NCBI RefSeq assembly: GCF_001945605.1
Contig: NZ_MPKA01000139.1
Location: 1 to 32,000, forward strand
DNA: 32,000 nucleotides
Reading direction: 5' to 3'
Source: Dubosiella newyorkensis
GTDB taxonomy: Bacteria; Bacillota_I; Bacilli_A; Erysipelotrichales; Erysipelotrichaceae
The first letter of the stretch is position 1. Every line of letters starts with the position of its first letter. The translations under genes and the position numbers were made by a program. Below are positions 19,318 through 26,963 of this stretch, one piece after another. The notes beneath the pieces were generated by a model. It made no database searches and was not told where the DNA came from. It saw nothing but the letters and a program-made list of their open reading frames with translations.

Positions 19318-19773
19318 TCAAAAGAAATAAAGGATATTGAAAAACAGCACAACAAAAAGGAGGATCAAATAGATCGACATCGGCTTGAAGATCAAGTAAA
19401 TCAAACTCCCAAAACACAAAAGCATCATTCCAAACAGCTTTGTAGAACCAGATGTGATCCATAAAATCGTGCAAACCAAAGAGGCAATGATCAAAAACAC
19501 GGACAAGATCTTCATCGCAAGATCATACCTAGGAATCGAGGAGAAGGTTTTAAATTGGACCGATTGCTTAGGAAAAACAGCCATCAGACCCAGTTCAGGC
19601 ATCCAATCCCGCTCATCATAGATCCAGACTGAGTAAGGATCGTGAAGGGCGGGTTCTTCTCCTTTTTTAAATAGCTGGATGTGATCTTTTCCGACTCGTT
19701 GTACAAAGTTGGTATAATCGAGCTCGTTTTCTAAAGTGTCCTGGATGTAGTATGTTTTCATTTTGATTTCCAT
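19318..19773 (-). CDS. hypothetical membrane protein (151 aa; soluble N-terminal half, three C-terminal TM helices)
   Basis: ORF with a strongly hydrophobic C-terminal half. Overlaps the upstream ORF by 16 nt. No recognisable motif. Confidence 0.5.
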   Translation of the reverse strand: MEIKMKTYYIQDTLENELDYTNFVQRVGKDHIQLFKKGEEPALHDPYSVWIYDERDWMPELGLMAVFPKQSVQFKTFSSIPRYDLAMKILSVFLIIASLVCTILWITSGSTKLFGMMLLCFGSLIYLIFKPMSIYLILLFVVLFFNILYFF

Positions 19774-20102
19774 GAACTTTGTTTATGATACACAAAGTAG
19801 AGAGCTATTATAATAATCTGCAGAAAATACACCATCCAATGAACAGGAAAGAAAAACAAATTGCAGACATCAAAGACAATGAGCGAAAAGACGACGATCT
19901 TAAAAGAATCGCGCTCTTTTTGTTTGCGGAGCTCATAATTGGCAGTACAGCCGATCAACAAAAAGATAGGGAGATAGAGCGCGTATCGTGCCCGATCTAA
20001 ATTCTCTAAGTTTTCAAGACAAAATGGCAAGATCACAAGCATGCCTAAGCTCAGCGCGAAAGAGGCGGCAAAGCGCTGGGATGTCGAAAGCGTTTGTTTC
20101 AT
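19758..20102 (-). CDS. hypothetical small membrane protein (114 aa, ~3-4 TM helices)
   Basis: Hydrophobic ORF with RBS AGGAGA 10 nt upstream and its own promoter. Confidence 0.5.
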   Translation of the reverse strand: MKQTLSTSQRFAASFALSLGMLVILPFCLENLENLDRARYALYLPIFLLIGCTANYELRKQKERDSFKIVVFSLIVFDVCNLFFFPVHWMVYFLQIIIIALYFVYHKQSSWKSK

Positions 20103-20222: not shown

Positions 20223-20675
20223 TTATTGATCGTGCTTATTGATAAATTTTTTAAGAAGCGCATAATCATTTTCCTTCATCGCGCCATAATTATTTGACTC
20301 TTTGAATTTTATGGCTTTCCCCTCCTTAGAAATGTAGAGCAGGGTCGGCACGTATTGCGCGTCATATTTTGTTTCGATCGCTTCCTTTTGGGCATCGGTC
20401 ATTTGATTCACATCGAGATAATAGATCACTAAGCCGCGGTTATCGCGAATGATCGAATTCATACCATCAAAAAATGTACCACAATGAGCGCAATCATCTC
20501 GCGAAATCACAAGGAAATGGTTGGAAAGATCTTGATTTTGCCATTCTTCATACGGGAGATCGACAAAACCGGTTTGTCTCTTGAACGATACAGCGCGCGT
20601 CAAGACAAAAAGAACACAAACACAACAAAGCGCGATCAGAACCGGAATCAGTTTATAGTGCTTTTTCATGAGCAT
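20223..20675 (-). CDS. membrane-anchored thioredoxin-fold protein (CxxC)
   Basis: N-terminal TM anchor (LIPVLIALCCVCVLFVL). The thioredoxin-like core has CAHC in ...LVISRDDCAHCGTF... and a later VPTLLYI strand (cis-Pro region). Confidence 0.7.
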   Translation of the reverse strand: MLMKKHYKLIPVLIALCCVCVLFVLTRAVSFKRQTGFVDLPYEEWQNQDLSNHFLVISRDDCAHCGTFFDGMNSIIRDNRGLVIYYLDVNQMTDAQKEAIETKYDAQYVPTLLYISKEGKAIKFKESNNYGAMKENDYALLKKFINKHDQ

Positions 20676-20741: not shown

Positions 20742-21251
20742 TCATTGAAGCTTCGTTCGATATAACGCCTTTTGAACGATCGGATACGCGACAAAAGCGA
20801 TCACGATTCCAACAAGACTTTGAAGGATGTTTTCAGGAACACCCGAAAGAGCGATGATCGCGCTCCCTTTTAAAAACCATTTCGCAAAAAAGTAGCCAAC
20901 GACCATCACGATCGAACCAGCCCCATAATACGCGAGTCGATACTTCGCTCCAAAGCGATGGAACAAATACGAGATCAAGTACGCCTCGATTCCTTTGATC
21001 AAAAGGGTCCAAATAAAATAATACGCATAACCGCCAGCCAAGTCAGCCATCGCTGAACCAAGACCGCCAACTAGAAAAGCGCCGAAAGGACTCAGTAGTC
21101 CTGCAAACAACATCAAAAAGCCATCTCCCATATTAAAGTAGCCATCCAGCGGATTGGGGATCTTGATAAACATTGTCGCGACAAAGACAAGAGCCATTCC
21201 TAAAGCGGTCAAAACGATTTCATTCGTGGTGTATTTTGTTTTCATACGCAT
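20742..21251 (-). CDS. ECF-transporter S-component-like small integral membrane protein (substrate unknown)
   Basis: 169 aa with ~5-6 TM helices and Gly-rich helices typical of S components (FIKIP....GYFNMGDGFLMLFAGLLSPFGAFLVGGLGSAMADL). No T/A components are adjacent and no recognisable riboswitch lies in its leader. Confidence 0.55.
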   Translation of the reverse strand: MRMKTKYTTNEIVLTALGMALVFVATMFIKIPNPLDGYFNMGDGFLMLFAGLLSPFGAFLVGGLGSAMADLAGGYAYYFIWTLLIKGIEAYLISYLFHRFGAKYRLAYYGAGSIVMVVGYFFAKWFLKGSAIIALSGVPENILQSLVGIVIAFVAYPIVQKALYRTKLQ

Positions 21252-21370
21252 TCTCTCCTTTGATATGCGTTTATCGTAACAAAGAATTGCTCTTTAAAAA
21301 ATATACAAAATCGTAAATAAAAAAGTATACAGAGGGGACAGTTTATAAAATAAAAAAAGGGACAATCGAA

Positions 21371-21410
21371 AATTGAATAAATATGAATCAAATTGAACAA
21401 AAAAGAATAA
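21371..21410 (+). repeat. four tandem 10-bp units AWWWGAAYMA directly upstream of the GRE promoter
   Basis: aattGAATaa / atatGAATca / aattGAACaa / aaaaGAATaa, with the G at 21375, 21385, 21395 and 21405 (exact 10-nt phasing). Confidence 0.6.
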
Positions 21411-21417
21411 AAATCAC

Positions 21418-21446
21418 TTGCAATTGGTCCGAGAAATACTTATAGT
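21418..21446 (+). promoter_or_regulatory. GRE operon promoter TTGCAA-17-TATAGT
   Basis: -35 at 21418-21423 and -10 at 21441-21446. The track ATG 21418 coincides with the -35, so the CDS start is moved to 21475. Confidence 0.6.
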
Positions 21447-21474
21447 GAAGACAGAAAGAAAGAGGATACGATAC

Positions 21475-23739
21475 ATGGCAAAAATCAATATCGATGGCGT
21501 GCAAAACGTTGAGATCTCTAAGAAGATCCCTTGTGAAAAGCCAATCGAACAACAGTTGGAAATCATGGAAAACTATACGCGGACTTATCAAAAGTATATA
21601 GACGCGCCTAAAGCGAAGCGGGAAATCGAATGTCTTAAAACGATCTATCCGATCTTGTTTCGTTCGATCGAAGACGATGATCTGATCGCAGGACGACTTG
21701 ATTTTTTGCCGATCGGCTTTGGCGCTGTCACAAGCGTAGGGGGCGTGGGACACTATTGCGTCTTTCATAAGTTGCGGGCATTCAAAGAAGAGCTTCCACA
21801 AAGTGAATGGGCTCGCGTCGATGCGCTCTACGATTTTTGGCAAGACCACGATGTAAAGACCCTCTATTGTCAAGATATCCTCAACGATACGACGACTGGA
21901 CGCTTTATCGATTGCACCTATCCATTTATGGCGACCGCTCGCCTATCTGGCATGATTCTCGATTATCAAAAACTGGTCACTCAAGGAATCAATGGCATCC
22001 TCCATTCTATCCAAAACGATCAAGAGGATCCGTTCATTCATGGCTGCATCGAAGCTCTCGCTCTTTTCAAAGACGTGATCAAAGCTCAAATCGAATTATG
22101 CGAACAAGCGAAGAAAAACAAAGAACAGTCACGCATCAAACAACTCGAACAAATGCAGGACGATCTAGCCTATTTGTTAGAACACAAGCCAGCCACCTTC
22201 CGTCAAGCCCTCCAGCTCTTCTGGCTGTACGCGCTATGCGCTGGATGCATCAACTATGGCCGATTGGATATCGTTCTTGGTCCATTTTTAAAAAGAGACA
22301 TTGAAACAAAAGAGATCAGCGAAGAAGAAGCGTACGACTTGATTCGATCGTTATGGAAAATGATCGAGAATCGAAGGACGACCGTCAATGGCCGCATCAT
22401 TGTCGGCGGAAAGGGCCGCAAAGATCAAGAGGCCTGCGATCTATTTACCAAACTTTGTTTACGCGTTTGCAAAAACACCCGCTATGTCGAGCCCCAATTC
22501 ACGCTCCGCTTCGACCATGACACCGACCCTGAAATCTTGGATATGGCCTATGATTGCATCGCTTCGGGAGCCACCTATCCTACACTTTACAACGATGATG
22601 TCAACGTCCCAGCCGTCCAATACGCCATGCGTGTATCTGAGGAGATCGCTGAACAATATGTTCCATTTGGATGTGGCGAATTCGTCATCCAAGGAAAAAG
22701 CATCGGAACACCGAATACATTGCTCAATCTCGTCAAGATCTTGCAGCTCGCCCTCAATCAAGGCGTCGATCCGATGGATGGGATCTATAAAGCAGGACCT
22801 GTGGAAGTCAAACCACTTGCTTCCTTTCAAACCTTCGATCAGTTTTATGACCAATACAAAAGGTTGCTCGACTACTATTTTGAATTGAGCGTTCAAGCGC
22901 AAAAGCACAGCTACACGATCATGAATCAAGAAGTTTCGTTTCTATTCAATTCAATCTTGATGGACGATTGTCTTGGACGAAAAAAAGCGCTCTTGGATGG
23001 TGGTGTCGAAATCGTTGGCGGTACCAACGAAACGTATGGGAATATCAACGCGAGCGATGCGCTCTATACGATCAAGACACTCGTTTTTGACCAAAAAAAA
23101 TATATGCTCGATCAACTCAACGAAGCAGCTCTTGCCAACTTTGCCGGCTATGAAAAACTCCATAAAGAAATCATGGCGCTACCTAAGTATGGAAACGATG
23201 AAATGGATTGCGATGAACTTGCCAACGACCTATTTGAATATATTGCCAAAGGAATCCGTCAAAAAGGAATCGATCACGGGATGGATTATTATTTGATCGT
23301 GATTTCCAACAACCAGACCAATACGGATTGGGGACATGAGACACACGCTTCTCTCGATGGACGAAAAAAAGGAGTCTACATGAATCCAGCCAACAATCCA
23401 CAAGGCGGAAATTCAAAAAATGGACCGACGGCCGTATTGAATTCTCTGGCTCGCTTTGATGCCAAATACCATGGGGGAAGCGTGCAAAACATCAAATTCA
23501 CGCCTCGCATGATGCATGAAGATCAAGAAAAGGTCAAAGCGCTCTTCAAAACGTATTTTAAAAAAGGAGGCTGCCAGCTCATGGTCACTGTCGTGGATCG
23601 AGGCGTTCTCGAAGACGCCCAGATCCATCCAGAACTTTATCCTGACTTGATCGTTCGAGTCGCAGGCTATAGCGCGGTGTTTGTCAATTTAGGAAAAGAT
23701 GTGCAGGAAGAACTGCTGAGCCGGACATTGTATGATTAG
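21475..23739 (+). CDS. glycyl radical enzyme, PFL2 (dehydratase/lyase) type, substrate unknown
   Basis: C-terminal glycyl-radical loop LIVRVAGYSAVFVNL and Cys loop PFGCGEFVIQG (Cys-x-Glu); 755 aa. Start ATG 21475 with RBS AGAGGA. Confidence 0.9.
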   Translation: MAKINIDGVQNVEISKKIPCEKPIEQQLEIMENYTRTYQKYIDAPKAKREIECLKTIYPILFRSIEDDDLIAGRLDFLPIGFGAVTSVGGVGHYCVFHKLRAFKEELPQSEWARVDALYDFWQDHDVKTLYCQDILNDTTTGRFIDCTYPFMATARLSGMILDYQKLVTQGINGILHSIQNDQEDPFIHGCIEALALFKDVIKAQIELCEQAKKNKEQSRIKQLEQMQDDLAYLLEHKPATFRQALQLFWLYALCAGCINYGRLDIVLGPFLKRDIETKEISEEEAYDLIRSLWKMIENRRTTVNGRIIVGGKGRKDQEACDLFTKLCLRVCKNTRYVEPQFTLRFDHDTDPEILDMAYDCIASGATYPTLYNDDVNVPAVQYAMRVSEEIAEQYVPFGCGEFVIQGKSIGTPNTLLNLVKILQLALNQGVDPMDGIYKAGPVEVKPLASFQTFDQFYDQYKRLLDYYFELSVQAQKHSYTIMNQEVSFLFNSILMDDCLGRKKALLDGGVEIVGGTNETYGNINASDALYTIKTLVFDQKKYMLDQLNEAALANFAGYEKLHKEIMALPKYGNDEMDCDELANDLFEYIAKGIRQKGIDHGMDYYLIVISNNQTNTDWGHETHASLDGRKKGVYMNPANNPQGGNSKNGPTAVLNSLARFDAKYHGGSVQNIKFTPRMMHEDQEKVKALFKTYFKKGGCQLMVTVVDRGVLEDAQIHPELYPDLIVRVAGYSAVFVNLGKDVQEELLSRTLYD

Positions 23740-24631
23740 ATTAAGCAATATTGAACGATTCGCCACCCACGATGGACCAGGCATCCGAACGACTCTTTTT
23801 TTTAAGGGATGTCATATGCATTGTCCTTGGTGCGCCAATCCAGAAACCTGGAATTTTGAGATCGAATTGCTTCACGATCCAAAAAAATGCACTCAATGCG
23901 CTCGTTGCCAAATCGTTTGTCAAAAACAAGCGATCAAAATCGAGAACGGAAAGTGGAGGCTTCAAAAAAAACAATGCGATCAATGCCGTAAGTGCGAAGA
24001 AGCGTGTTTGAATGATGCGATCACATTTTCAGGAAAAGAGTATTCGATCGAGGAGCTGCAAAGCATCGTCGCCAAAGATCGAGATTTTTATGAAGAAAGT
24101 CATGGGGGCATCACTCTTTCTGGCGGGGAAGTTATGCTTCAGCTTGAGGAAGTCAAAACACTCTTAAAAAAGCTCAAGCAGGAAAACTATCATATCGCTC
24201 TTGAAACCACGGGTAGCTACCCGCTCAGCTCTTTAAAGCAAGTCGTTGAGGATGTGGACTTGTTTTTAATGGATTTCAAACATTTAGATCTAGAAAAGCT
24301 AGAACAGATCACAGGCGCAAATGGAGCGGAAGTGATCGAGAACTTTCAATATTTAGCCAAGCACTATCCCGAAAAAGTGATTCTTCGCATGCCTGTCATT
24401 CCTCGATTCAACGCGGATCGACCAACGATCGAAGCCGTCCTCGATTTTGCTCGCGAATACGGGATCCAAGAAGTCGATCTTTTGCCTTTTCATCCTCTTG
24501 GCGCCAATAAATGGCAGCAGCTCGATCGCTTATATCTATATCAAGAGGAGCCGATGATGGATAAAGAACAGCTCAAACCATATATCGAGCTAGGAAAAAA
24601 GAAAGGCGTCTTCGTGAAAGTAGGTGGATAG
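23732..24631 (+). CDS. glycyl-radical enzyme activating protein (radical SAM)
   Basis: CX3CX2C radical-SAM motif (GCHMHCPWC) and two ferredoxin-type CX2CX2CX3C motifs (CTQCARCQIVC, CDQCRKCEEAC). Also a GGxxLSGGE-type SAM-binding motif (GGITLSGGE). 8-nt overlap with the GRE gene. Confidence 0.92.
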   Translation: MIRLSNIERFATHDGPGIRTTLFFKGCHMHCPWCANPETWNFEIELLHDPKKCTQCARCQIVCQKQAIKIENGKWRLQKKQCDQCRKCEEACLNDAITFSGKEYSIEELQSIVAKDRDFYEESHGGITLSGGEVMLQLEEVKTLLKKLKQENYHIALETTGSYPLSSLKQVVEDVDLFLMDFKHLDLEKLEQITGANGAEVIENFQYLAKHYPEKVILRMPVIPRFNADRPTIEAVLDFAREYGIQEVDLLPFHPLGANKWQQLDRLYLYQEEPMMDKEQLKPYIELGKKKGVFVKVGG

Positions 24632-25414
24632 ATGATCAGTGTACAACGACTAAAATTGATCCAAGAAATGATCGAGAAAAATTCGTTTGTTTCGGTCAAA
24701 GAGATCATGGAACGCTTTGAAGTGTCTCGCTCAAGCGCCATGCGGGATCTGATCGAATTAGAAAATCAAGGCATCGTCATCCGAGAAAGAGGAGGGGCGA
24801 TGTTAAAAGAAAAGGCGGCGACCGTATCGAGTGCCAATGAAGCCGCGATCCGGACCAAAGAAAATCTGCACGCTTCTCAAAAACGAGAAATATGTAAAAT
24901 GGCTTCGCAAACGATCCAAGAAGGAGACTGCATTTATATCGATGGAGGGACGACACCTTTGTTTTTGGCGGAAAAGATCGCGAACATGAAAGTGACGATC
25001 ATCACGCCGAACACGTATTTTTTAGAAAAACTCTCCGTGACATTTCCGGGAACGATCTATTTGCTCGGTGGCGAGTTTGGCCTTGGCCGCGACATGAGCT
25101 ATGGACCTTTGACGATCGAGATGTTGAAGCAGTTCAACTTTGATTTGGCATTTCTATCAACGAACGGGATCGATCTAGAACGAAAAGAAGTCAGCGTTTT
25201 TGATTTCCAAGTGGGAGCTGTCAAAAAAGAAGTGCTGAAACGGTGCAAACACAACCGGCTTCTTGTCGATTCTTCCAAGATCGGAAAGCGCGCGATCTGT
25301 TCGTGGGCACAGCTTGATTCGTTTCAAGATATTTATATGGATACCTGTCCACTAGAGGAACGGCCAGAAAATGTGATCGTCTATGAAGAGAAAGGAAAGA
25401 AAGAGAACGTATGA
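24632..25414 (+). CDS. DeoR/GlpR family transcriptional regulator
   Basis: N-terminal HTH (VSVKEIMERFEVSRSSAMRDLIELENQGIVIR) and C-terminal sugar-phosphate-binding DeoR_C-like domain; 260 aa. Starts immediately after the activase stop. Confidence 0.88.
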   Translation: MISVQRLKLIQEMIEKNSFVSVKEIMERFEVSRSSAMRDLIELENQGIVIRERGGAMLKEKAATVSSANEAAIRTKENLHASQKREICKMASQTIQEGDCIYIDGGTTPLFLAEKIANMKVTIITPNTYFLEKLSVTFPGTIYLLGGEFGLGRDMSYGPLTIEMLKQFNFDLAFLSTNGIDLERKEVSVFDFQVGAVKKEVLKRCKHNRLLVDSSKIGKRAICSWAQLDSFQDIYMDTCPLEERPENVIVYEEKGKKENV

Positions 25415-26163
25415 AAACAACCGACGCAAGAAAAAAAGCGATTTTAGAAAGTATGAAGGGCGGATTGATCGTGAGCTGCCAAGTTCAAAAAGATGATCCG
25501 ATCTATACGGAAGATATGGTCGTGAAAATGGCCGAAGCCGCTCGCTGGGGCGGCGCTGTGGGAATACGTGCTAACTCGCCTGAACAGATCAAGAAGATCA
25601 AAGAAGCAGTGCCAGAACTTCCGATGATCGGTCTTTGGAAAGTTTGGCATGACGATACGGATGTATTCATCACGCCGACGATAAAGGAAGTTAGAGCGAT
25701 CTGGGAGGCGGGCGCCGAGATCATCGCGTTAGATTGCACGGCGCAAATCACCCATGAAGGAAAGCCAGCATGGGATTTGATCAAGCAAGTCAAGCAAGAG
25801 ATCCCGGAAGCGATCGTTTTCGCGGATGTTTCAAATTATGAAGAGGCGAGACGCGCCATTGAAAATGGGGCGGATATCGTGGCGCCAACATTATATGGCT
25901 ATACAAAAGAGACGGCGCATATCGAAGAGCCCGATATGCGGATGTTCGCTAAAATGTGCAAAGACTTTCAAGACGAAGCGTATGTGATGATGGAAGGGCA
26001 TATCTATACGCCAGAGGACGCTATGAAGTGTATCTTTTTAGGCGCGCATAGTGTCGTGGTCGGCAGCGCCATCACACGTCCGCATTTAACGACCAAACGG
26101 TTCACAGATCTACTAGGCAAATACCAAGACAATTGGAGAGAGGCAGAACGGGCGAAACATTAG
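25411..26163 (+). CDS. NanE-family putative (N-acyl)hexosamine-6-phosphate 2-epimerase-like TIM-barrel protein
   Basis: GGLIVSCQ..DDP......V.MAEAA..GGAVGIRANSPEQIKKIKE...LPMIGL.K......DVFITPT..EV......GAEIIALD.T ... VVVGSAITRP...TKRF matches my memory of NanE along the full length. ATGA overlap with the DeoR gene. Confidence 0.8.
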   Translation: MKTTDARKKAILESMKGGLIVSCQVQKDDPIYTEDMVVKMAEAARWGGAVGIRANSPEQIKKIKEAVPELPMIGLWKVWHDDTDVFITPTIKEVRAIWEAGAEIIALDCTAQITHEGKPAWDLIKQVKQEIPEAIVFADVSNYEEARRAIENGADIVAPTLYGYTKETAHIEEPDMRMFAKMCKDFQDEAYVMMEGHIYTPEDAMKCIFLGAHSVVVGSAITRPHLTTKRFTDLLGKYQDNWREAERAKH

Positions 26164-26195
26164 GAGCGAAAGATTTCGCTTCTTTTCTTTTTTTC
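26163..26195 (+). terminator. rho-independent terminator of the GRE operon
   Basis: GGAGCGAA-agat-TTCGCTTC followed by TTTTCTTTTTTT. Confidence 0.75.
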
Positions 26196-26219: not shown

Positions 26220-26435
26220 ATGGACCAAGAACAACAAGCGATCGTTTTGTGTCAAAAAAATGAAGGAAAGAAATTTCTTTGGAAAGAACAAGAAGGAGTA
26301 TTCGAGATCGTGGAGGACTGCAATTGTTGCGGAGCGAGCAATAATGTCTTGTTCTGTTTTCAAAGCGAGACGAAACGAACGATGCTAGACGCGGGAATGC
26401 TTTTGAAGGCTTTTCAAGAAAGCAAACCGCTCTAA
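26220..26435 (+). CDS. hypothetical small protein (71 aa, contains CNCCG)
   Basis: ORF trimmed to the first ATG downstream of the terminator. Weak RBS and no recognisable motif. Confidence 0.35.
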   Translation: MDQEQQAIVLCQKNEGKKFLWKEQEGVFEIVEDCNCCGASNNVLFCFQSETKRTMLDAGMLLKAFQESKPL

Positions 26436-26702: not shown

Positions 26703-26963
26703 ATGACAAAAGATGAATTCAAAAAAGTATTGACTGACGCTATCGGTGGATCTGCATATGGTGATGAAGTAATCGCTGATTTAGTAGCAAACTTCGGTGA
26801 AGAAGGAAAATATGCGCAAAATGCTAAAGACCGCCTTGATGATCGTCTAGGAACACTTAAAGGTTGGGAAAAGAAACATCGTGAAGAAGGCGACGCAGCA
26901 AAAGCTGATGAAGAAGCCGCTAAGATCGCGATCGTAGAAAAAGCTTTGAAAGCAATCGCTTAA
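26703..26963 (+). CDS. hypothetical small charged helical protein (86 aa) with codon usage resembling highly expressed genes
   Basis: Clean ORF with its own strong terminator. Ala GCT/GCA, Gly GGT and Arg CGT predominate, as in eno, unlike the bulk genes in the window. Confidence 0.6.
   Translation: MTKDEFKKVLTDAIGGSAYGDEVIADLVANFGEEGKYAQNAKDRLDDRLGTLKGWEKKHREEGDAAKADEEAAKIAIVEKALKAIA

Follow-up and report, generated by a model that had tools for sequence, protein, structure and literature searches.

What reaction does a glycyl radical enzyme (GRE) catalyse when the genes that usually accompany such enzymes are not beside it? The question is raised by a locus of Dubosiella newyorkensis (contig NZ_MPKA01000139.1, positions 1–32,000; this whole 32,000-nt stretch is the window referred to below), in which a GRE gene is followed by genes for a radical S-adenosylmethionine (SAM) activase, a DeoR/GlpR-family regulator and a NanE-like TIM-barrel protein. 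Comparison of this cassette with its relatives suggests a self-contained, repressor-controlled catabolic unit for a phosphorylated hexose-type sugar, built on a GRE of an uncharacterised family, a reading to which we give an even chance. The cassette thus points to an undescribed anaerobic breakdown route for a phosphorylated sugar in a gut Firmicute.

Organization of the cassette

All four genes lie on the forward strand where a preliminary description of this DNA had placed them (21475–26163) and are tightly packed. The GRE gene (21475–23739, 754 aa) overlaps the activase gene (23732–24631, 299 aa) by 8 nt; the regulator gene (24632–25414, 260 aa) follows with a 0-nt gap, and the NanE-like gene (25411–26163, 250 aa) is joined to it by an ATGA overlap. 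As also described earlier, the unit ends at a hairpin resembling an intrinsic terminator, with a 9-bp stem followed by a T-run (26162–26193, +). The ATG at 21475 was taken as the start of the GRE in preference to the upstream TTG at 21418 because it is preceded by a ribosome-binding site (AAGAGGA, 21460–21466, +) and homologues start at the same place.

The other genes of the window are housekeeping genes (MnmG, glycogen phosphorylase, Dxr, MetG, MetK, enolase and a U32 peptidase), and the cassette can therefore be regarded as ‘orphan’. Shell proteins, aldehyde dehydrogenase, pyrroline-5-carboxylate reductase and sulfite reductase were all absent from among the window genes, in agreement with the earlier statement that the usual GRE partners are missing. 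A microcompartment-associated GRE was rejected, as the remaining genes are housekeeping genes.

The GRE belongs to the Cys-X-Glu class by its catalytic motifs

The GRE returned matches to the Pfam domains PFL-like (388 bits) and Gly_radical (95 bits). It had been presented as a 755-aa protein with the loops RVAGYS and GCGE; both motifs are present, but the length had included the stop codon. The glycyl loop R728-V-A-G731-Y-S (residues 728–733; 23656–23673, +) conforms to the glycyl radical motif RVxG[FWY], and the Cys loop comprises G399-C400-G401-E402 (22669–22680, +). Pairwise HMMER and MAFFT alignments set C400 and E402 on the catalytic Cys/Glu pairs of propanediol dehydratase, CutC, HypD, YbiW and PflD, so that the Glu of GCGE does coincide with the catalytic Glu, as had been supposed. 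A Cys-X-Glu arrangement is the rule for the 1,2-eliminase/isomerase class of GREs (PMC13450708), and this alignment places the window enzyme mechanistically in that class, as judged by its catalytic motifs. A pyruvate or ketoacid formate-lyase (PflB/TdcE) was rejected, the loop G-C-G-E having no Cys-Cys pair and the PflB model (TIGR01255) returning 91 bits against a cutoff of 994.

By the sequence comparisons made here, the enzyme is nevertheless outside every characterised family, as the preliminary description had anticipated. The best NCBIfam model was TIGR01774 (‘PFL2-3’; 302 bits, cutoff 678), and the earlier label ‘PFL2-type’ is hence apt only as the name of the nearest neighbour. All equivalog scores were far below their cutoffs (HypD, 260/1100; HpfG, 236/1000; CutC, 232/1050; HpsG, 210/1000; PflD, NF007437, 202/1109), and the best PDB sequence match reached 210 bits, with propanediol dehydratase, CutC, HypD, YbiW and glycerol dehydratase near-tied and the solved YbiW/PflD structures at 176–200 bits (phmmer). 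Membership of the HypD, CutC, HpfG, HpsG, HPAD, IAD, BSS and PflD families was rejected on these equivalog scores and PDB similarities. A confident AlphaFold2 model built on 62 sequences (pLDDT 92.4, pTM 0.92) resembled all eliminase/isomerase GREs alike (TM 0.82–0.86, 20–23 % identity); among the top-ranked PDB matches, YbiW with bound 1,5-anhydroglucitol-6-phosphate (AG6P) was marginally the best, with the highest TMq (0.86) and the lowest root-mean-square deviation (3.6 Å), a difference that does not discriminate.

The activase carries the radical SAM motif CX3CX2C (C27X3C31X2C34) and two ferredoxin-type clusters (C53/56/59/63 and C82/85/88/92), as described earlier, and scored 316 bits with TIGR02494 (cutoff 174). 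The window cassette accordingly shares with the GRE 1,2-eliminases (glycerol and propanediol dehydratases, HypD, CutC, IslA, HpsG and HpfG) the catalytic Cys/Glu, the RVAGYS glycyl loop, an activase with two extra ferredoxin-type clusters and the overall fold (TM 0.82–0.85), but differs from them in its scores far below all equivalog cutoffs, the absence of their usual partners and its sugar-phosphate context.

Much closer relatives were recovered by a scan of 1.84 billion cluster representatives. The nearest neighbours were P0121 (53 % identity) and P0122 (46 %), beyond which lie approximately 100 clusters (at 50 % identity) of ~750-aa GREs with 33–40 % identity and 400–550 bits. This short-GRE clade, for which no characterised member was found, is much nearer to the window GRE than anything characterised. 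Its common features are the Cys loop F-G-C-G-E-Y/F and a six-residue deletion before N-Y-G-R-x-D relative to YbiW/PflD; the glycyl loop reads RVGGFSARF in most members, compared with RVAGYSAVF in the window family.

The gene contexts of the short GREs are varied. Loci L031, L033, L038 and L039 (P0125–P0200 clade) include GH38, ROK and ribulose-phosphate-3-epimerase-like genes together, an AraC regulator with PhoD and a sulfatase, and PhyH, and an AraC regulator lies next door to several members of the clade. The distant short GREs P0122, P0126, P0127 and P0130 have unrelated contexts, which were of no help.

The cassette is conserved through repeated rearrangement

The homologue search for the GRE returned more than 100 clusters at 90 % identity. 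Gene neighbourhoods were compared in 107 loci obtained by homology searches with the window and partner proteins (23 from GTDB species genomes, 80 from metagenomes and several via protein look-ups). These formed 58 clusters at 90 % GRE identity, 37 of which had enough flanking DNA, and a gene was counted as a partner if it lay within 7 kb of the GRE. Among the 37 well-flanked clusters, the activase accompanies the GRE in 34, where it adjoins it, the NanE-like gene in 31 and the DeoR gene in 30. The linkage of GRE, NanE-like and DeoR genes is thus conserved in related genomes, as the preliminary description had left to be established, down to 53 % GRE identity and in many orders.

At least eight gene orders were observed: GRE-activase-DeoR-NanE, GRE-activase-NanE-DeoR, NanE-GRE-activase, DeoR-NanE-GRE, DeoR-GRE-activase-NanE and three in which a further gene is interposed, namely GRE-activase-DeoR-AraC-NanE, GRE-activase-DeoR-HAD-NanE and GRE-activase-DeoR-PTS-NanE (PTS, phosphotransferase system). 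On a neighbour-joining tree, linkage to the NanE-like gene extends from the deepest branch (P0121/L030, 53 % GRE identity) through the whole family, with scattered losses; judged by this distribution, the GRE/NanE-like pairing is ancestral and robust. Greedy clustering of the flanking open reading frames (ORFs) detected no additional universally conserved neighbour. Everything else around the cassette varies, and it therefore behaves as a self-contained module.

The hosts comprise Dubosiella, ‘Firmicutes bacterium M10-2’, Faecalibaculum, Thomasclavelia (including T. ramosa), Faecalibacillus, Absicoccus, Solobacterium, Faecalicoccus, Peptacetobacter and an Atopobiaceae metagenome-assembled genome (MAG), together with one lineage with Bacteroidota-like neighbours. 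In two MAGs labelled Segatella copri and Bacteroidaceae (L002 and L003), the cassette encodes a GRE 75–77 % identical to that of the window and Firmicute-type PTS regulators lie nearby; these sequences probably represent a mis-binned Firmicute contig or else a recent transfer.

In T. ramosa (L024, 1–9675 and 15828–17135), the cassette is positioned directly 3′ of conjugation/type-IV secretion genes, which encode a TraG-like coupling protein, TrbL, PrgI, a VirB4-like ATPase and a CHAP lysin. An insertion sequence (IS; DDE_Tnp_1) interrupts the neighbouring HAD phosphatase gene at this locus, and IS remnants also flank L030 and L035. The proximity of conjugation genes and IS elements suggests horizontal mobility. 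In three loci from uncultured Erysipelotrichales (L011, L012 and L021), the GRE is followed directly by the DeoR gene and the activase is absent from the fetched DNA; judging from these gene orders, either the activase gene is located elsewhere or the GRE is inactive.

The NanE-like protein is a distinct paralogue

The fourth gene had been assigned to the NanE family. This holds at the level of the fold family (Pfam NanE, 168 bits; PRK01130, 254 bits, cutoff 189; solved NanE structures, 148–163 bits), but the protein is not simply NanE. Mutagenesis of Staphylococcus aureus NanE identified these residues in the active site: Gln11, Arg40, Lys63, Asp124, Glu180 and Arg208 (PMC8482478). All six are present in the window protein (Q24, R53, K77, D139, E195 and R223) and are kept in 12 of 12 aligned NanE-like sequences, and the window protein also retains the two acetamide-contacting residues, Tyr and Phe. 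The second signature motif of NanE, V-G-[SG]-A-x-T-R, is likewise found (V-G-S-A-I-T-R, residues 217–223), so that the active-site residues and this motif are shared with the NanE structures of S. aureus, Clostridium perfringens and others (PMC8482478).

The first signature motif, x-P-x-I-G-I-x-K-[basic], is replaced by L-P-M-I-G-L-W-K-V. Across the GRE-linked clade, this motif reads G-L-W/Y-K-V/I in place of the canonical G-I-I-K-K/R, with loss of the basic residue after the catalytic Lys. Further clade-specific changes are TLSGYT to TLYGYT, AEG(K/N/R) to MEGH, the loss of two Arg from D-A-T-K-R-x-R and an additional conserved C-terminal tail of ~15 residues. The window protein also differs from NanE in its linkage to a GRE and not to nanA or nanK, neither of which is present in the window, and its counterpart coexists with a canonical NanE in Breznakia. 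There (L037, 9001–10433), a 249-aa NanE-like gene (84 % identical) lies 20 nt upstream of a canonical NanE of 220 aa, and the latter outscores the window protein on the NanE model (315 against 254 bits). The pair is preceded by genes for a GntR regulator, DeoC (a true deoxyribose-phosphate aldolase, DERA) and an RmlD-like reductase; no full-length GRE lies within 9 kb of this NanE-like gene, the sole GRE-related gene being a 77-aa GrcA-like ORF. On sequence grounds, the NanE-like protein is a distinct NanE paralogue, and it probably retains proton abstraction next to a carbonyl, with altered specificity.

Promoter, regulator and candidate operator

The preliminary description had a single promoter (TTGCAA-17-TATAGT) driving the four genes. 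The sequence is present (21418–21446, +), resembles a sigma-70-type promoter and matches the consensus at 9 of 12 positions, which is not above chance, since 11 equal matches occur in the window and 10.6 are expected from shuffles. The −35 (TTGnAA) and −10 (TATAgT) hexamers are, however, kept across six relatives (79–82 % GRE identity), which is better evidence for a real promoter than the 9/12 match.

The third gene is confirmed as a DeoR/GlpR-family regulator, with both the N-terminal DeoR helix-turn-helix domain (HTH_DeoR, PF08220, 49 bits) and the C-terminal sensor domain (DeoRC, PF00455, 130 bits); none of the NCBIfam equivalogs (AgaR, GlpR, SrlR, UlaR and others) reached its cutoff. Four direct repeats of wwGAAyA (21373–21409, +; starts at 21373, 21383, 21393 and 21403) with an exact 10-bp period end 9 nt before the −35 hexamer and are kept in relatives. 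Of 100 loci, 21 have a triple GAAYA-repeat pattern at −80 to −123, within the 260 nt that precede the GRE, against a background of 0.002 per 260 nt, an enrichment of approximately 100-fold upstream of homologous GRE genes. The repeats are a strong candidate for the operator of the DeoR-family protein.

Accessory genes point to a phosphorylated sugar

The preliminary description had suggested a survey for a linked kinase or PTS. In 16 of the 58 clusters, a PTS of the Man or Fru type is encoded no more than 7 kb from the GRE, although none is present in the window itself, and ROK kinases adjoin the NanE-like gene in others. The order in L030 is Man-PTS EIIABCD-NanE-GRE-activase-GntR, followed by a PMI::ROK fusion; in T. 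ramosa, the NanE-like gene abuts the Man-PTS cluster, in the order NanE, 98-aa ORF, EIIA/B/C/D and Gfo/Idh/MocA gene. A Man-PTS EIIABCD also adjoins the GRE/NanE-like pair in L095 and L102–L104, in L014 and L015 the end of a Fru-type EIIABC is separated by 3 nt from the GRE that follows it, and the Fru-family PTS of L076 is MngA/FruA-like. L114 has the order ROK kinase-NanE-like-GRE-activase and then a Mac-type acetyltransferase. Cof-type HAD sugar phosphatases occur near the cassette in L024, L066–L070, L076 and L098, and AraC regulators in T. ramosa, Faecalibacillus and L076. Given the PTS, ROK kinases and Cof-type phosphatases of these relatives, the substrate is probably a phosphorylated sugar, which strengthens the earlier inference to that effect.

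In three further loci, a ~930-aa protein of the GH94 superfamily (PF17167, 75 bits) adjoins the NanE-like gene (L035, 9786–12575; L012, 6180–9017; L074, from ~7282). No NCBIfam name and no solved relative were found for it; going by its superfamily, it may free the pathway sugar from a glycoside.

Proposed pathway and alternative explanations

The order in which the two enzymes act can be approached by chemical reasoning. A NanE-type substrate, with an aldehyde at C1, a stereocentre at C2 and a phosphate at C6, cannot be the direct product of the GRE because a 1,2-elimination that makes the C1 aldehyde removes the C2 substituent. Our tentative preference, held at somewhat below even chance, is that the epimerase acts before the GRE on the open-chain form of an aldohexose 6-phosphate whose C2 substituent is not a hydroxyl, an N-acetylhexosamine-6-phosphate being the likeliest, and would supply the epimer that the GRE accepts. 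A subclade with a Fru-PTS is without the epimerase and its sister L076 has both, a pattern that fits an upstream, dispensable role in supplying the epimer.

In such a pathway, a Man/Fru-family PTS or ROK kinase, encoded elsewhere in the genome of the window organism, would produce the sugar 6-phosphate, and Lys77 and Glu195 of the NanE-like protein would invert the carbon next to the carbonyl. The activase would generate the radical at Gly731, and the resulting thiyl radical at Cys400 would take a hydrogen atom from a hydroxyl-bearing carbon of the sugar 6-phosphate. Glu402 would deprotonate the hydroxyl while a vicinal leaving group (OH, ring oxygen or N-substituent) is expelled, and return of the hydrogen would give a deoxy-keto sugar phosphate that enters central metabolism. 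The DeoR protein would probably bind the 10-bp-phased GAAYA repeats at the promoter and be released on binding a sugar phosphate.

Several observations weigh against the proposed pathway. The genes accompanying the cassette do not include nagA, nagB or nanA/K, and a radical step is not needed in canonical amino-sugar catabolism. Systematic differences separate the NanE-like clade from canonical NanE, which lies beside it in Breznakia; on these grounds, the substrate of the NanE-like protein may not be N-acetylmannosamine-6-phosphate (ManNAc-6-P) at all. In addition, six of the 37 well-flanked lineages have no nearby epimerase, and only about one lineage in four has an adjacent PTS or kinase gene.

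PflD and YbiW of Escherichia coli are among the nearest known counterparts. The preliminary description linked these enzymes to the dehydration of anhydrohexitol-6-phosphates; according to PMC13450708 and PMC12441222, which summarise the work of Ma et al. (JACS 2024, doi 10.1021/jacs.4c07718), the enzymes are ring-opening isomerases (C–O lyases) of 1,5-anhydromannitol-6-phosphate and AG6P, respectively, and not dehydratases. In this ‘anhydroglycolysis’, as outlined in the same papers, anhydrohexitol 6-phosphates made by a PTS undergo ring opening by the GRE, which yields 1-deoxyfructose-6-phosphate (PMC13450708, PMC12441222). The genes are arranged as frwCB-pflDC-frwD with yijO and as ybiY-ybiW-ybiV with fsaA. 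Like the window cassette, YbiW/YbiY and PflD/PflC pair a Cys-X-Glu GRE with a dedicated activase and have no microcompartment genes. The main alternative, a Firmicute version of this route in which the GRE opens the ring of, or dehydrates, a sugar phosphate that has no carbonyl (a 1,5-anhydrohexitol-6-phosphate, another anhydro sugar or a hexitol phosphate) and the NanE-like protein acts afterwards on the carbonyl product, as an epimerase or in place of fructose-6-phosphate aldolase (FSA), is somewhat unlikely in our view. The logic of the E. coli loci (PTS, GRE and activase, with the AraC regulator yijO and the HAD ybiV) is matched by the PTS (Fru/Man-type, as frw), AraC and Cof-type HAD genes beside the GRE in T. 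ramosa, Faecalibacillus and L076, and YbiW with AG6P is the marginally best structural match noted above. Carbonyl-dependent epimerases also recur near the GRE clade, as P0125 (40 % identity) has a ribulose-phosphate-3-epimerase-like gene and one for a ROK kinase as neighbours, and Gfo/Idh/MocA oxidoreductases, the family to which 1,5-anhydrofructose reductase belongs, are encoded nearby in T. ramosa and L111–L117. Yet the window GRE is only ~23 % identical to YbiW/PflD, scores 202 against 1109 with the PflD equivalog, is shorter (754 against 765–810 aa) and differs in its Cys loop G-C-G-E-F and in the six-residue deletion before NYGRxD. The cassette has neither an FSA aldolase nor a GldA partner, its conserved partners being the NanE paralogue and DeoR: an FsaA/B homologue is absent from the window and FSA-type aldolases lie within 7 kb of the GRE in only one of the 58 lineages, on which count FSA was rejected as a cassette partner. 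For NanE chemistry, moreover, the carbonyl must lie five carbons away from the carbon that bears the phosphate, whereas in 1-deoxyfructose-6-phosphate it is four away. A switch to aldolase chemistry is disfavoured by the retention of all the catalytic and acetamide-contacting residues of NanE.

A deoxy-sugar route ending in DERA appears decidedly improbable. The GRE would make a 2-deoxy or other deoxy-keto sugar phosphate, from which a ketoreductase and DERA would yield acetaldehyde and a smaller aldose phosphate, with the NanE-like protein as a stereochemical adaptor. A block of GntR, RmlD-like reductase and DeoC genes (with a PMI-like gene) does follow the NanE-like gene in Thomasclavelia saccharogumia (L007) and precedes it in Breznakia (L037); DeoC reaches the DERA equivalog (207 and 230 bits, cutoff 117) and is also encoded near the cassette in L076. 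Nonetheless, only one of 58 clusters (L007) has DeoC at 7 kb or less from the GRE, the L076 copy being farther away; the Breznakia block has no full-length GRE within 9 kb; and a 2-deoxy aldehyde offers no C2 stereocentre to a 2-epimerase. Still less probable, and in our judgement very unlikely, is that the NanE-like protein is a conventional ManNAc-6-P epimerase whose gene just happens to have its neighbourhood or its regulator in common with an unrelated GRE, without a joint pathway. It does reach the cutoff of the PRK01130 NanE subfamily, and public records name it N-acetylmannosamine-6-phosphate 2-epimerase. Against this stand the linkage, which persists in 31 of 37 lineages despite repeated rearrangement and at GRE identities as low as 53 %; the ATGA translational coupling in the window; the clade-specific substitutions and C-terminal extension; the tandem arrangement with a higher-scoring canonical 220-aa NanE in Breznakia; and the lack of nanA/nanK in the window.

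Returning to the hexosamine-type pathway, we consider it unlikely, though conceivable, that the GRE performs radical chemistry new to its superfamily on an amino-sugar or related aldohexose 6-phosphate. Such chemistry could be a C–N cleavage at C2 of the manno epimer that the NanE paralogue makes, with the axial substituent there set free as acetamide or ammonia, or it could be a ring or phosphate elimination. If true, it would amount to a radical branch of hexosamine/mucin-sugar catabolism, widespread in gut Erysipelotrichales and neighbouring taxa.

Novelty and significance

Literature searches joining ‘glycyl radical’ with NanE, ManNAc, N-acetylmannosamine-6-phosphate or epimerase returned nothing relevant, and no published description of the window cassette or of its pairing with NanE was found. 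A GRE review of June 2026 includes no enzyme of the window GRE clade and mentions neither NanE nor DeoR. What is new is a clade found to be uncharacterised, with an unprecedented conserved NanE-paralogue partner; the enzyme superfamily and the mechanism class are known.

GREs open to gut anaerobes reactions that would otherwise be impossible, among them the formation of trimethylamine, p-cresol and H2S precursors, the use of hydroxyproline and the recently described anhydroglycolysis. Identification of the substrate would add a reaction or pathway to gut sugar-phosphate metabolism and assign a function to many genes annotated ‘pyruvate formate-lyase family’ or ‘ManNAc-6-P epimerase’. It would also reveal the way in which an epimerase of the carbanion type works together with a radical enzyme, and would open up to study the wider clade of short ‘GCGE’ GREs, with its ~100 clusters at 50 % identity.

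Neighbouring genes

A gene for a membrane protein resembling the S component of energy-coupling factor (ECF) transporters (20742–21251, −; 169 aa; PF07155, 115 bits) is divergent from the cassette, as reported earlier. It is not part of the conserved unit, adjoining the GRE in five of 58 clusters, all within the window’s own subclade (the window, L040, L041, L042, L043, L001 and L022). A role as the general transporter of the cassette was rejected, as these are the closest lineages only; on this distribution, the protein is probably a lineage-specific neighbour outside the cassette.

Near the ECF-S gene, a 150-aa membrane-anchored protein is encoded (20223–20675, −) that weakly matches the PedC/BrcD family of disulfide isomerases of bacteriocin maturation (22 bits, below the cutoff), and two small hydrophobic ORFs come after it (19318–20102, −). 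A small Cys-containing ORF of ~72 aa (26220–26435) and an ORF for an 86-aa Lys/Glu-rich protein (26703–26963) lie 3′ of the terminator, and the latter protein is present in two copies in Dubosiella muris (L022, 15028–15216 and 15743–15931).

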